DNA of 64,000 nt from Candidatus Fervidifonticultor secundus (GTDB lineage: Bacteria > Sysuimicrobiota > Sysuimicrobiia > Sysuimicrobiales > Humicultoraceae): assembly GCA_031459385.1 (NCBI GenBank), contig JAVKIP010000004.1, forward strand, positions 32,001 through 96,000, in the 5' to 3' direction. Shown one piece after another: positions 1,098 to 32,917 of the stretch. The notes below the pieces were generated by a model. It was not told the origin of the DNA and did no database searches. It saw only the letters and a program-made list of their open reading frames with translations. A program made the position numbers and the translations under genes. Positions within the stretch are counted from its first letter, which is position 1. Each line of letters begins with the position of its first letter.

Positions 1098-2282
1098 ATG
1101 ATCGAACGTCTGTTTGCGGAAATCGATGCCGCCCGAGACGCCTTGGTGGCGCTCCGGCGCGACCTGCACGCCCACCCGGAACTGGGCTTCCAGGAGGTCC
1201 GCACCAGCGGGATCGTGGCGGAACGGCTGCGCGCCGCGGGGCTGGCCGTGCGGACCGGGCTGGCCACCACCGGCGTGGCCGGGGTGCTCCGGGGCGCACG
1301 GCCCGGGCCCAGCGTCCTCGTCAGGGCCGATATCGACGCCCTCCCCATCGAGGAGGCCAACACCGTCCCCTACCGGAGCCAGCGGGCCGGGGTGATGCAC
1401 GCCTGAGGGCACGACGGGCACACCGCGGTCGCGGTGGTGGTCGCGGAACTCCTGGCCCGGCAGCGGGACCGGCTGCCGGGGGCGCTCGTCTTCGCCTTCC
1501 AGCCCGCCGAAGAGATCGTCGCCGGCGCCAGGCCCATGATCGAGGCTGGCGTGATGGACGACCCGAAGGTGGATGCCGTCGTCGGGCTGCACCTGTGGAA
1601 CGACCTGCCGGCAGGGGTCGTCGGCGTCCGCGCCGGTGCGGTCTTCGCCGCGGCCGACGAACTCGAGGTCGTGGTGGAAGGGCGTGGCGGCCACGGCGGC
1701 ATCCCGCATCAGGCCGCCGATCCGATTCTGGCCGCCGCGCACATCGTGACCGCGCTGCAGGCCATCGTCAGTCGGGAGACGCCGCCGCTGGACGCCGCGG
1801 TGGTTTCATTTGGGACGATCCAGGCGGGCACGGCCTTCAACATCATTCCCGACCGTGTGGAGCTGCGCGGCACGGTGCGGACCTTCGCGCCCGAGGTCCG
1901 CGAGCGGACGTTGCGGCGGATTCAGGAGATCGCCACCGGCGTGGCGGGAGCCCTGCGCGGGCGGGCCGAGGTCATCACGCGGCCGGGCTGTCCGGTCGTG
2001 CGCAACGACCCCGGGGTGACCGACGTCGTGCGCCGCGTGGCGGAGGAGGTCGTGGGCGCGGACCGCGTCGAGGAGATGCAGCCCACCACCGGGAGCGACG
2101 ACATGGCGTACTTCCTGGAGCGCGCGCCCGGCTGCTACTTCGTGGTCGGCTCCCACAACCGCGACCGCGGGCTGGACGGCCGACACCACACCGACCGGTT
2201 CGACTTCGACGAAGACGCGCTGACGGTGGCCGCCAAGGTACTAGGCGGCGCGGCCGTGCGGCTGCTGGAGGGCGCCGGCTAG
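1098..2282 (+). CDS. M20D family amidohydrolase with in-frame TGA at codon 103 (candidate selenocysteine)
   Basis: ORFs 1092..1406 and 1434..2282 are in the same frame, separated only by TGA 1404-1406; motifs RRDLHAHPELGFQE, RADIDALP, MHA*GHDGH, FQPAEE, GRGGHG, GSDDMAYF; SD AAGGGGGAG before ATG 1098. Confidence 0.88.
1407..1445 (+). promoter_or_regulatory. Putative bacterial SECIS element
   Basis: Upper stem CACCGC(1421-1426)/GCGGTG(1431-1436) with GGTC loop beginning 20 nt after the TGA; lower pairing CGAC(1412-1415)/GTCG(1440-1443). Confidence 0.6.
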
Positions 2283-3142
2283 GCGGGCGGTCGCAGCACC
2301 TCGCCCACGAACGCGTCCAGGGCCGCCGTCGCCGGCGGCGGCGCGGCGACGAACACCCGCCACGCCCCGCGCACCCGGTCCACCGTCTCCGGCGCCAGGA
2401 GCGCTGGGAGCGGTGGCTCGGTCCAGGGAAGCGCGTCGACCTGGAGGGCGGCCTCGTCACAGTAGTCCAGGGTCGCGTCGAGGAAGTCGCGCAGGGAACG
2501 CCCGGCCAGCTCGGGTACGGGCGGAGGCCGGTCCCACCGGTCGGCGAACGCGGCAGTCAGGAGCTGGATCAGCGCCGCCAGAGTGCCCAGGGCCCGCGCG
2601 CCGTCCCAGCGCGCCTGAATGCTCTGCGCGGTCGGCCCGCTCGCCAGCGCGCTCACGTGCATCGCCTCGGCGGCGGCCGCCGCCAGCGCCAGCCTAATGG
2701 CCCCGCCCAGGCGGTCACCCGCGTCCGTCCGGCCCACCAGGTGGCGCAGGATCGCGGCGGCGGCATCGTGCGCCTTCCGCGCGTGTGCCGGCGTGGTGAT
2801 GCGCGGCATCGTCACCCGGCGGGCGAACAGGTCGCCGACCAGCACCGGCAGCCACTCCGGGTGGTCGTAGCGCGACGGGTGGCTGGCAAGGCGTCGCCGC
2901 AGGGCAGCCAGGGCGCGGGCGCCCAGCGACCCCGAGGCGTCCAGGGCGATCCGCAGGGGGAGGAACACCAGCGCGCCCCACACGATCAGCGCGAAGATCC
3001 AGCGGTCCAGTCCCCACCCGGCCAGCTGCATCGCGCCGAGGGTCAGGAAGAACCCGACAACACACCCCCCCAGCAGCCAGCGCGCCACGAGCGCACGCCT
3101 GCGCCCCTCGGCGAGCCGCGCAAGCCACAGGTGCATCGCCAT
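2279..3142 (-). CDS. Hypothetical membrane protein (two N-terminal TM helices)
   Basis: ORF with SD GGAAGGA before ATG 3142; hydrophobic segments LLGGCVVGFFLTLGAM and WIFALIVWGALVFLPL. Confidence 0.7.
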   Translation of the reverse strand: MAMHLWLARLAEGRRRALVARWLLGGCVVGFFLTLGAMQLAGWGLDRWIFALIVWGALVFLPLRIALDASGSLGARALAALRRRLASHPSRYDHPEWLPVLVGDLFARRVTMPRITTPAHARKAHDAAAAILRHLVGRTDAGDRLGGAIRLALAAAAAEAMHVSALASGPTAQSIQARWDGARALGTLAALIQLLTAAFADRWDRPPPVPELAGRSLRDFLDATLDYCDEAALQVDALPWTEPPLPALLAPETVDRVRGAWRVFVAAPPPATAALDAFVGEVLRPPA

Positions 3143-3240
3143 CGTCCTTCCAGTTTCGCGCCAGGTGCTCACAACCCTTGCCGGCCGGCGGTGGTAGGGG
3201 CCGGCCGCGCCCCGCCACCCGGGCGCGCGGCCCGCAAGCG

Positions 3241-3266
3241 GGAACGCGGCGGGCGCAGGGGTCGTT
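3241..3266 (+). promoter_or_regulatory. SigR/SigH-type ECF promoter upstream of YceI gene
   Basis: GGAAC-N18-GTT. Confidence 0.6.
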
Positions 3267-3913: not shown

Positions 3914-5287
3914 GTGGCGGGCGTGGACGCGGCTCTGGCGTACGCCCGCGAGCACCGCACGCGCTTCCTCAGCGAACTCGTGGATCTGCTGCGCATCCCC
4001 AGCGTCAGCACGGCGCCGCAGCATGTCGACGACGTGGCGCGGGCGGCGCACTGGCTGGCTGCCCACCTCGACGGGCTGGGGCTGCGCGCGCGCGTGGAGG
4101 CCGGCGGCCGGCATCCGCTGGTGCTCGCCGAATGGATGGGCGCGCCGGGTCGGCCGACGGTGCTGTGCTACGGGCACTTCGACGTGCAGCCGCCCGACCC
4201 GGTGGACCTCTGGCGGAGCCCGCCCTTCGACCCGGTGATCGACGGCGACGTCGTCTACGCCCGCGGGGCTTCCGACGACAAGGGCCAGCTCTTCATCCAC
4301 CTGAAGGCGCTGGAGGCCATCCTGCGCACGACCGGGAGGCTTCCGGTGAACCTGAAGGTCCTCCTGGAGGGTGAAGAGGAGATCGGCAGCCCCACGCTGG
4401 CGACGTACATACCGCGCCGGCGCCGGCGGCTGGCCTGCGATGCCGCGCTCGTCAGCGACGGGTCGCTGTTCGCGCCCGATCTCCCCACGCTGGTCACCGG
4501 CCTGCGAGGTCTGCTGTACACCGAGGTCGACGTGCAGGGCGCCCGGCGGGACCTCCACTCGGGCCAGTTCGGCGGCGCCGCACCCAACGCCCTGGGCGCC
4601 GCCGCCCAGATCGTCGCGGCCCTGAAGGACCGCCGCGGGCGCGTCCGCGTGCCGGGCTTCTACACCCGCGTGCGCGAGCCGTCTCCTGCCGAACGCGACG
4701 CCTGGGCCCGGTTGCCGTTCGACGAGGCGGCGTTTCTCGCGATGCTGGGCACCGACGCGGCGCCCGGTGAGGCGGGGGTGCCGGTGCTCGAGCGGCTGTG
4801 GACGCGGCCGACGCTCGATGTGCACGGCATCGCCGGCGGCTTCACGGGCGAGGGGATGAAGACCGTGATTCCCGCCCGCGCCGTCGCGAAGGTGTCCATG
4901 CGCCTGGTGCCCGACCAGGAGCCGGCGCGCATCTTCCGGCGGTTCGCGCGGTTCGTGCAGCGTCAGGCGCCGCCGGGTGTGCGGGTTGAGGTGCGCCACC
5001 TGGCGTCGACGCCGCCGGTCGTGACCTCGCCGGAAGCCGCGCCGGTCCGGGCTGCGGGAAGGGCCCTGGAGGAGACCTTCGGGCGACCGCCGGTCTACGT
5101 CCGCGAGGGCGGGAGTATCCCGGTCGTGGCCGCGTTCGTGCGGGCGCTGCGGGTCCCCGCGGTCCTGATGGGCTTCGGCCTCCCCGACGACAACCTCCAC
5201 GCGCCCAACGAGAAGTTCTCGCTGGCGAACTTCGGCCGGGGCATCGAGGCCACGATTCGTTTCTTCTACCACTATGGGAACGGGTGA
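3914..5287 (+). CDS. M20 family dipeptidase (Dug1/CNDP2-like); start may be GTG 3923
   Basis: LRIPSVST, YGHFDVQP, ARGASDDKG, EGEEEIGS, DLHSG, GGSIP, HAPNEKF motifs. Confidence 0.92.
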   Translation: MAGVDAALAYAREHRTRFLSELVDLLRIPSVSTAPQHVDDVARAAHWLAAHLDGLGLRARVEAGGRHPLVLAEWMGAPGRPTVLCYGHFDVQPPDPVDLWRSPPFDPVIDGDVVYARGASDDKGQLFIHLKALEAILRTTGRLPVNLKVLLEGEEEIGSPTLATYIPRRRRRLACDAALVSDGSLFAPDLPTLVTGLRGLLYTEVDVQGARRDLHSGQFGGAAPNALGAAAQIVAALKDRRGRVRVPGFYTRVREPSPAERDAWARLPFDEAAFLAMLGTDAAPGEAGVPVLERLWTRPTLDVHGIAGGFTGEGMKTVIPARAVAKVSMRLVPDQEPARIFRRFARFVQRQAPPGVRVEVRHLASTPPVVTSPEAAPVRAAGRALEETFGRPPVYVREGGSIPVVAAFVRALRVPAVLMGFGLPDDNLHAPNEKFSLANFGRGIEATIRFFYHYGNG

Positions 5288-31870: not shown

Positions 31871-32917
31871 ATGCGCAGCATGGTGGCAAACGCGGTCGTG
31901 AGACTGGCGACCGCCGCGGCCGTGGTACTCGCCGGCGGCGGTCCCGCGCAAGCGCAGGCATCCGTGCTGAACCTCTACAACGCCCGCCACTACGACACCG
32001 ACCAGGCGCTCTATGACGAGTTCACGCGCCAGACCGGTGTCCGCGTGAACCTGATCCAGGGCGATGCCGACCAGCTCATCGAGCGGATCAAGGCCGAAGG
32101 CGCGGGCAGCCCGGCCGACGTGCTGATCACGGTGGACGCCGGCCGGCTGTACCGGGCGCAGCAGGCCGGGCTCTGCCAGCGGATCGCCTCGCCGGTCCTC
32201 TCCGCCCGTCTCCCTGCCAGCCTGCGCGACCCCGAGGGCGCGTGGTACGGCTTCACCAAGCGCATGCGGGTGATCGCGTACGCACGGGAGCGGGTGGCGC
32301 GCGCAGAGCTCTCCACCTACGAGGACCTGGCCGACCCCCGCTGGCGCGGCCGCGTGCTCGTGCGCAGCTCGAGCCACGTCTACAACCAGTCGCTGGTGGG
32401 CGCCCTGGTGGCGTGGCACGGCGAGCCGTTCGTGGCGCGCTGGGCCCGCGGGATCGTGCAGAACTTCGCCCGGCCACCGCAGGGCGGGGACACCGACCAG
32501 CTCCTGGCGCTGGCCGCCGGCGAAGGGGACGTGGCGCTCGTGAACCACTACTACTACGTCCGGCTGCTGAACTCCCCGCGGCCCCATGAGCGCGCCGCCG
32601 CGGCAAAGGTTGGCCTGTTCTTCCCCAACCAGGGGCTGGAAGAGCGCGGGGTGCACGTGAACCTGAGCGGCGCCTGCGTCGTCGCCACGGCGGCGCACCG
32701 CGCCGCGGCCGTCGCGTTCCTCGAGTACCTAGCGTCCGACGGCGCGCAGGAGATCTTCGCCAGGGGGAACTTCGAGTTCCCGGCGGTCCGCGGCATCACC
32801 AATCCCTTGGCCGCCATCGCCCCCGCCCTGCTCAGGGAGGACCCGCTGAACGCCCGCATCTACGCGGCTAACGGCGGCAGGGCGCTGCAACTCATGGTCG
32901 GCGCCGGCTGGCGCTAG
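31871..32917 (+). CDS. Fe(3+) ABC transporter substrate-binding protein (FutA/FbpA-like)
   Basis: LYNARHYDTD, SPADVLITVDAGRL, RSSSHVYNQSL, GGDTDQ, NHYY, GVHVNLSG. Confidence 0.92.
   Translation: MRSMVANAVVRLATAAAVVLAGGGPAQAQASVLNLYNARHYDTDQALYDEFTRQTGVRVNLIQGDADQLIERIKAEGAGSPADVLITVDAGRLYRAQQAGLCQRIASPVLSARLPASLRDPEGAWYGFTKRMRVIAYARERVARAELSTYEDLADPRWRGRVLVRSSSHVYNQSLVGALVAWHGEPFVARWARGIVQNFARPPQGGDTDQLLALAAGEGDVALVNHYYYVRLLNSPRPHERAAAAKVGLFFPNQGLEERGVHVNLSGACVVATAAHRAAAVAFLEYLASDGAQEIFARGNFEFPAVRGITNPLAAIAPALLREDPLNARIYAANGGRALQLMVGAGWR

Follow-up and report, generated by a model that had tools for sequence, protein, structure and literature searches.

Nearly all known selenoproteins are oxidoreductases. 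As stated in parts of the 2026 review PMC13188914, approximately 20% of selenoprotein families are estimated to bind atoms or groups, and about 70% of these bind metals, including Zn; the selenium of FdhA coordinates Mo or W, and direct bonds between selenocysteine (Sec) and a metal have experimental support in FdhA, FrhA and FrhD alone. Among hydrolases of the M20 group, a passage on CsAga (6SLF) describes two zinc ions bridged by a cysteine (PMC11511702), while Sapep, an enzyme of the M20A type, has an Asp as the bridge and has no bearing on this cysteine (PMC2937973). The stretch of DNA analyzed in this study (the window; 64,000 nt, positions 32,001 to 96,000 of the forward strand of contig JAVKIP010000004.1 of Candidatus Fervidifonticultor secundus) contains an M20D gene with a TGA codon in place of the codon for this residue. 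The window is part of contig C34 of the draft genome G000 (3.30 Mb, 59 contigs, 71.9% G+C, 5.5% estimated contamination). Judging from sequence comparisons, it is highly probable that the gene encodes a full-length M20D N-acyl-amino-acid amidohydrolase/carboxypeptidase, in which UGA codon 103 is read as Sec by means of a downstream hairpin, with a selenolate replacing the metal-ligating Cys thiolate.

An M20D gene with one in-frame TGA

The first-pass annotation had joined two ORF fragments into one frame broken by a single TGA, and had described the remaining ligand motifs and the length of the protein as intact. Translation of positions 1098-2282 confirmed both statements. There is a single frame of 394 codons closed by TAG (2280-2282), in which the TGA at 1404-1406 (codon 103) is the sole internal stop, and no other lesion is present. 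The features of the gene are as follows.

1084-1092, + strand: Shine-Dalgarno-like sequence AAGGGGGAG, 5 nt ahead of the start ATG at 1098 (direct reading of the sequence)
1098-2282, + strand: M20D amidohydrolase gene, 394 codons plus TAG, with one in-frame TGA
1404-1406, + strand: TGA codon 103, proposed to encode Sec, aligned with the conserved Cys of MHACGHD
1410-1412, + strand: His105 of the U-G-H motif (position from the translation), which we take to be a metal ligand, after the literature on ILL2 and YxeP
1497-1514, + strand: FQPAEE, residues 134-139, presumed to supply the general base and a metal ligand; shared with 1ysj, 1xmb and 4ewt
1584-1595, + strand: GLHL, residues 163-166, presumed His ligand
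2181-2192, + strand: RHHT, residues 362-365, presumed His ligand

In the read-through protein, MHA-U-GHDGH occupies residues 100-108. The protein matches the TIGR01891 profile of NCBIfam over residues 16-378 (373.5 bits; cut-off 153.75) and the Pfam domains Peptidase_M20 (PF01546; 9.3e-43, 147 bits) and M20_dimer (PF07687; 1.8e-13, 50.8 bits). The best match of solved structure is YxeP of B. subtilis (1ysj; 2.7e-87), followed by ILL2, 4ewt, 6slf and 3io1. Alignment with the five closest solved M20D chains (1ysj, 1xmb, 4ewt, 3io1 and 6slf) placed MHACGHD at the TGA site in all five, which upholds the family assignment and the expectation of Cys at this column. Of the five presumed metal-ligand positions of M20D enzymes, those in the His, Glu, His and His motifs are preserved and the Cys position is TGA. 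The score of the protein was below the cut-off of every equivalog model, so that none of them points to a substrate: the closest named type is the carboxypeptidase CpsA (NF040868; 389.9 bits against 500), and the N-acetyl-diaminobutyrate deacetylase DoeB2 (NF038260) gave 298 bits against 550. A second copy of the M20D ortholog was not found in G000 at E ≤ 1e-40.

The TGA was also inspected in sequencing data, as had been advised in the first-pass annotation. Three DNA runs of one study, labelled hot springs metagenome and possibly the source of this DNA, yielded contigs over the stretch that differ from it at 0, 0 and 2 positions, never at 1404-1406. At depths of 12-31, the contigs of the individual runs contain TGA, with no alternative letter, rather than TGC or TGT. 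The same column is TGA in 13 assemblies in total, i.e. in 12 besides G000.

Relatives were sought in the phylum of the window (94 species genomes, one order) and within it in the family of the window (34 genomes). The ortholog was detected only in this family, in 18 of the 34 genomes (18/94 in the phylum). The Cys column is TGC in 12 of these 18 orthologs, TGT in one and TGA in five. The TGA-bearing orthologs (putative Sec forms, referred to below as Sec forms, as opposed to Cys forms) come from three genera, and comprise those of (i) G000, G001 and G002, which represent one genus (88% identity), (ii) G008 (71%) and (iii) G042 (72%).

The ratio of nonsynonymous to synonymous substitutions (dN/dS; Nei-Gojobori, ten Sec-Sec pairs) is 0.14-0.31 downstream of the TGA and 0.08-0.25 upstream of it, and five reference pairs (3 Cys-Cys, 2 Sec-Cys) gave downstream values of 0.15-0.25. 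As judged from these ratios, purifying selection acts on the part of the gene following the TGA just as it does on an intact gene. In a maximum-likelihood tree of the 18 orthologs and four outgroups, Sec forms appear in three places, which calls for three changes of state, in either direction; well-supported branches force at least two, and none of 200 bootstrap trees needs only one.

Sec forms were also encountered outside the family. In the phylum of the Candidatus Rokuibacteriota record, a homolog (E ≤ 1e-70) is present in 113 of 251 genomes, with the unpublished G142, G314 and G315 counted. Eight of these matches were flagged as containing TGA, and in seven the codon lies at the Cys column (G108, G138, G139, G140, G141, G143 and the unpublished G142). 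The eighth, G099, was rejected as a Sec form, since the flagged TGA simply terminates its gene. A second lesion is absent from all full-length Sec forms, the G140 copy being cut by a contig end. Scans of genome and metagenome contigs for further relatives yielded, as the matches listed, distant homologs of at most 55% identity. One of the 80 metagenome loci listed, L142 (55% identity), has TGA at the Cys column within a full-length frame; 83 of 84 motif instances among the metagenome matches listed carry Cys, one probe pattern being Cys-coded and so biased against TGA. The L142 protein is likewise below the cut-off for CpsA (NF040868; 411.4 bits against 500).

Protein databases contain many candidates for the same arrangement. 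When the N-terminal 102 residues were used as a query, 424 short proteins were matched at E ≤ 1e-10, and 72 of the best 120 of these end exactly at ...MHA. The ...MHA fragments are mostly of 101-102 residues, share 57-100% identity with the query, originate from JGI, ENA, Logan and NCBI, and are named amidohydrolase or hypothetical protein. A stop placed exactly at the ligand column in many diverged clusters would be hard to explain otherwise, and suggests that the fragments may belong to a widespread family cut in two by annotation pipelines.

The hairpin after the UGA and the selenocysteine machinery of the host

The sequence following the UGA contains three elements of possible relevance to Sec insertion.

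1407-1436, + strand: 30 nt after the UGA, frozen at the nucleotide level in the Sec forms (variable-site windows)
1421-1436, + strand: hairpin CACCGC-GGUC-GCGGUG, resembling a selenocysteine insertion sequence (SECIS); 5′ arm 1421-1426, loop 1427-1430, 3′ arm 1431-1436
1412-1443, + strand: lower stem CGAC (1412-1415)/GTCG (1440-1443), in G000 only; z = -1.69 for the 32-nt version

Twenty nucleotides separate the UGA from the GGUC loop. The published model of the bacterial SECIS (PMC13188914) specifies a loop of 3-9 nt, a stem of 4-16 bp, G in the first two loop positions, a distance of 16-37 nt from the UGA and a minimum free energy of at most -7.5 kcal/mol. In a comparison by hand with these values, the hairpin agreed with all constraints (4-nt loop, 6-bp stem, 20-nt spacing, -9.3 kcal/mol). 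For the 16-nt hairpin z = -3.07, and 6 of 200 shuffled sequences fold equally well. Because the genome has 72% G+C, fold stability alone is not decisive. A scan of positions 1300-1560 against Rfam gave no usable SECIS match, but only chance-level hits to a miRNA and a serC leader, far under the gathering score.

More informative is the comparison between forms. The exact hairpin with the GGUC loop is present in all five Sec forms of the family and in one of the 13 Cys forms; in most Cys forms the loop is GAUC, owing to Ile in place of Val. Variable nucleotides were counted in 10-codon windows on four non-redundant Sec sequences, with the near-duplicate L016 set aside. The 30 nt that follow the TGA contain a single one, whereas windows average 12.8 over the whole gene, and the 6 windows (of 382) with so low a count all overlap the TGA site. 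For the Cys forms, this window shows 14 variable nucleotides, the mean being 19. On this comparison, the loop and the freeze at the nucleotide level distinguish the putative Sec forms from the Cys forms, and the support for a role of the hairpin is comparative, not energetic.

The first-pass annotation had proposed a SECIS-like hairpin with an upper and a lower stem as the signal for Sec. Its upper part holds: it lies at the predicted place, fits the published model and is frozen only in TGA-bearing forms. The lower stem CGAC/GTCG does not belong to a conserved element, as it is lost in the other TGA orthologs (L015, L016, L023 and L108). As a Sec signal, the proposal is favored by the distribution of the GGUC loop and weakened by the fact that the peptide accounts for much of the upper hairpin, which is also frequent in Cys forms. 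An alternative hairpin of 10 bp, with the loop GGUG located 26 nt past the UGA, occurs in G000 only and is absent from the other Sec forms, so it is not proposed here.

Two Cys forms retain the 6-bp stem in a modified shape, L106 (G043) by the paired synonymous changes CACTGC/GCAGTG and L019 (G006) with a G-U wobble. This hints that the stem may be older than the Sec state, or may outlive it.

The Sec forms of the second phylum have a different stem from those of the family of the window. The hairpin of the Rokuibacteriota forms other than G108 is CCGCCAUC-GGGGU-GAUGGCGG, that of G108 is CCGCCAUG-GGUCU-CAUGGCGG, and that of L142 is CGGCCAUC-GGUCU-GAUGGCCG (-14.9 kcal/mol, z = -4.27). These three stem versions (CCGCCAUC/GAUGGCGG, CCGCCAUG/CAUGGCGG and CGGCCAUC/GAUGGCCG) differ between the lineages by paired changes. 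All 8 of these Sec forms, L142 included (7/7 without G142), have a stem of at least 7 bp and a G-rich loop that begins 23-25 nt past the UGA, compared with 2 of the 12 Cys loci examined.

The components for decoding UGA as Sec are encoded in the host genome. Contig C12 of G000 carries a cluster of selA (465 bits), selB (367.6 bits; cut-off 242.25) and tRNA-SeC(tca), and selD (388 bits), which has its own in-frame TGA, is located on contig C1 (- strand). In G002, the TGA-bearing M20D gene and selB are on one contig of 3.15 Mb. selB is present in 29 of the 34 family genomes (with the unpublished G010 and G019 counted), among them all five TGA bearers, and in the second phylum it was above the cut-off in four of the five genomes tested, the fifth copy being cut by a contig end. 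Aragorn detected no suppressor tRNA other than tRNA-SeC(tca). A global reassignment of TGA is ruled out, since this codon terminates 854 of the 1495 long ORFs with a coding signature in G000 and is the commonest ordinary stop.

A scan of G000 for TGA codons with coding-type composition on either side produced 70 candidates, 14 of which were submitted to Pfam. A domain spans the TGA in seven of the 14: five known selenoprotein types (Thioredoxin_3/Grx-like, CMD, deiodinase/Prx-like, OsmC and ArsM-like methyltransferase), a CbiA/CooC-like ATPase and an SBP_bac_8 protein. The hairpins of the Trx3/Grx-like, CMD, deiodinase/Prx-like and OsmC genes have stems of 7-8 bp and loops AGGCU, AGGCU, CGGCG and UGGAG, respectively, which begin 16-26 nt after the UGA, and the M20D hairpin is similar to them.

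The SBP_bac_8 gene (G000:C58, 25080 (-), L123; outside the window) served as a negative control. Its in-frame TGA aligns with TGG (Trp) in G002, there is no stop at this site in G001, G002 and G042 (91-94% identical; all three relatives with a match), and no hairpin beyond 4 bp follows it. This TGA probably arose by a nonsense mutation or reflects an error, and, as far as these comparisons indicate, the TGA of the M20D gene differs from it on every count.

The selenoproteome of G000 is sizeable. It includes Trx3/Grx-like (T-U-PHC), CMD (C-E-Y-U), deiodinase/Prx-like (T-U-PYC), OsmC (G-U-LTG) and ArsM-like (G-U-LSG) proteins and SelD, and a Pfam or NCBIfam match spans the TGA at each of the sites (C8:25730(+), C9:69909(-), C36:4787(+), C45:16942(+), C56:126001(+) and selD on C1 (-)).

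A further in-frame TGA was observed in the gene of the CbiA/CooC-like P-loop ATPase (G000:C23, 19460 (-), L117; outside the window), within HAGAG-U-MCRTH. It occupies the same column in G001 and G002 (71-72% identity) and is followed by a conserved 5-bp hairpin, whose loop CGUGC is that of selD. This ATPase may be another metal-site selenoprotein with Sec in place of Cys; CooC, CbiA and MinD are not mentioned in the available parts of the 2026 review PMC13188914.

The reading of codon 103 and its alternatives

In the mechanism that we propose, SelB and Sec-tRNA(Sec) would decode UGA codon 103 as selenocysteine, being recruited by the hairpin CACCGC-GGUC-GCGGUG located inside the coding sequence, 20 nt downstream. 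The selenolate would replace the conserved thiolate of Cys, a ligand of both catalytic metal ions and, according to the literature, the bridge between them. Selenium would thus act as a metal ligand of a hydrolytic site and not as a redox-cycling residue. The first-pass annotation had arrived at a Sec-containing hydrolase, and this reading finds support in (i) the machinery, with selA, selB, selC and selD all present in G000, (ii) the pairing of Cys and TGA at one column (in the family 13 orthologs have Cys and five TGA, with further TGA forms in a second phylum), (iii) the downstream dN/dS, which is not relaxed, (iv) the contigs of individual runs and (v) the fit to the SECIS model. From these data we infer both the insertion of Sec and the binding of metal by it.

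Several observations weigh against this reading. The sequences compared are related, their counts are not independent, and only 2-3 Cys/Sec changes are needed within the family. The peptide T-A-x-A-V forces 4 of the 6 pairs of the hairpin, and the 6-bp stem is also found in 9 of the 13 Cys orthologs, so the hairpin alone proves little; the stem of the second phylum is also partly dictated by its peptide, T-A-I-G-x-M-A-A. When the 67 nt after the UGA are considered, z = -0.90 and 37 of 200 shuffled sequences are as good. In the genome scan, all 87 motif instances among the 80 loci listed carry Cys (one probe pattern was Cys-coded, which biased the scan against TGA), and there is no Sec form among the 125 homolog-bearing genomes of 401 sampled Chloroflexota (the unpublished G521, G620 and G692 included); three Chloroflexota genomes flagged as having one TGA were rejected, as in all three it is the terminal stop. 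The 72 fragments ending at ...MHA are protein sequences, and a TGA behind them is presumed. The bridging role ascribed to the M20D Cys at this site is drawn from one review sentence on CsAga (6SLF) and an alignment. Finally, the evidence from RNA libraries (metatranscriptomes) consists of one 206-nt contig of run X5, which covers only positions 1000-1201 and may reflect DNA carry-over; with this limited extent it does not demonstrate expression of the gene.

Among the alternatives, the one that survives best, improbable as we consider it, is that Sec is not the residue, or not the sole residue, inserted at UGA 103, which would give an ordinary thiolate M20D enzyme at low yield. This could come about through Cys mis-charged on tRNA(Sec) at scarce selenium, or through near-cognate readthrough by Trp or Cys. 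The inserted residue is predicted from sequence, the Cys forms are clearly functional relatives, and the hairpin would be equally useful if SelB delivered Cys-tRNA(Sec). A single-base change to TGC would give Cys, yet TGA has been retained across 65-88% protein identity and two phyla, the full Sec pathway including selD is kept in the genomes, and tRNA-SeC(tca) is the only suppressor identified by aragorn.

A nonsense lesion is less probable still. The gene would then be a pseudogene, or a split gene that yields a fragment of 102 residues and, perhaps, a second product restarted at GTG 1434. Gene callers do treat it in this way, public databases list N-terminal pieces of 101-102 residues as separate proteins, and G000 does contain one in-frame TGA resembling a true lesion, namely that aligned with Trp. 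A lesion is difficult to reconcile with the presence of TGA at the same codon in 13 assemblies of two phyla, with downstream dN/dS values equal to those of intact Cys forms and the lack of a second lesion, with the status of the gene as the only copy of the ortholog in G000, or with the loss of a key metal ligand that a break at this point would entail. A sequencing or assembly error at 1404-1406 has a negligible probability: G000 is indeed a 59-contig draft with some estimated contamination, but the TGA is present in the contigs of the three runs and in the independent assemblies G001, G002, G008, G042, L142 and six published genomes of the second phylum.

If codon 103 is read as Sec, a broader interpretation can be put forward tentatively, and we rate it slightly below an even chance: the protein might be the first natural selenium-ligated dinuclear metallohydrolase, in which Sec is kept for a non-redox reason, with repeated switching between Cys and Sec, in a widespread family split by annotation. 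Switching would be easy if, as the sequences indicate, the peptide after the ligand (T-A-V-A-V or T-A-I-G-x-M-A-A) already encodes most of the SECIS hairpin, so that little beyond a change of TGC to TGA and a G-rich loop would be needed. As to the benefit of selenium, one may guess at oxidation resistance of the metal-bound chalcogen or at a changed metal affinity; higher resistance to permanent oxidation is one idea cited in a part of PMC7176365.

Gene neighborhood and comparison with known systems

Two genes near the M20D gene belong to a conserved neighborhood.

1-1017, - strand: ornithine cyclodeaminase/mu-crystallin family gene (PF02423, 2e-65), divergent, extending past the start of the window
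3914-5287, + strand: second M20 peptidase gene (PF01546, 4.5e-32, and PF07687), with no in-frame stop

The cyclodeaminase/mu-crystallin gene adjoins the M20D gene in all 17 of 17 orthologous family loci, and the set composed of this gene, the M20D gene and the second M20 peptidase gene is conserved across the family. In the loci of genus g4, the second M20 gene is directly downstream of the M20D gene, without the intervening unknown gene and YceI gene of the window. A frame of 328 codons (2282-3265, - strand) has a coding signature and no Pfam match, and lies beside the M20D gene in 10 of the 17 family loci (47-80% identity). This neighborhood was not seen at L142, L207 and L213 within 1.5 kb on each side. 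The neighbors suggest a role in amino-acid salvage or catabolism, and the conserved cyclodeaminase-family gene suggests that the released amino acid is processed further.

No family named as M20, or as a hydrolase, peptidase, acylase or amidase, is listed in the inventory of 119 prokaryotic selenoprotein families given in the main text and Table 1 of the 2026 review PMC13188914. An M20D selenoprotein is likewise not mentioned in the available parts of the 2022 review PMC9312934, nor in the deep-Sep paper or its four supplement files. In the portions consulted, PMC5658510 refers to M20 and to selenoproteins only in unrelated sentences, and FdhA is the only selenoprotein of relevance in PMC7176365. 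A search of full-text literature, with subscription journals and NCBI record flags outside its scope, revealed no paper linking Sec to the M20D family, and none of the NCBIfam selenoprotein models matches the M20D gene. We rate the Sec form of M20D as a new selenoprotein family, not as a new kind of selenoprotein.

With it, a hydrolase would join a list of selenoproteins that is mostly redox. A hydrolase that is simple and open to assay, with Sec and Cys as alternatives at its metal-bridging position, would constitute a clean natural system: close Sec and Cys orthologs share their gene neighborhood, and the benefit of selenium without a redox cycle (metal selectivity, pKa, oxidation resistance) could therefore be addressed. 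The locus also points to a systematic gap in annotation, with at least 72 public sequence clusters represented by stubs of 101-102 residues, and it illustrates how close a coding sequence can already be to forming a SECIS.

The predicted protein shares with the Cys-type M20D enzymes (YxeP, 1ysj; ILL2 of Arabidopsis, 1xmb; 4ewt of S. aureus; CsAga of C. striatum, 6slf) the fold family, the length and the MHA-x-GHD, QPAEE, GLH and HH motifs. What sets it apart is TGA at the Cys codon and a hairpin of SECIS type behind it, a combination shared with 12 further assemblies; no solved or characterized member of the family has Sec. The selenium-metabolism-linked M20 hydrolase of the YgeY family (NF009555) is another M20 enzyme associated with selenium by its name; the M20D protein is not a member of that family (24.8 bits; cut-off 321). 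YgeY is tied to selenium through its gene neighborhood and is not known to contain Sec of its own. The MbdU, SaoB/SaoC, YHS-domain and CobW-related families, which are predicted to bind metals, resemble it in being computationally predicted Sec/Cys pairs with a bacterial SECIS. Functional parallels are the formate dehydrogenase FdhA (Mo/W) and the [NiFeSe] hydrogenase, in which Sec is a direct metal ligand, as is proposed for the M20D protein. Those two are redox enzymes with redox-active cofactors, whereas the M20D protein, of an unrelated family, would hold its selenium at a hydrolytic, nominally non-redox dinuclear site.

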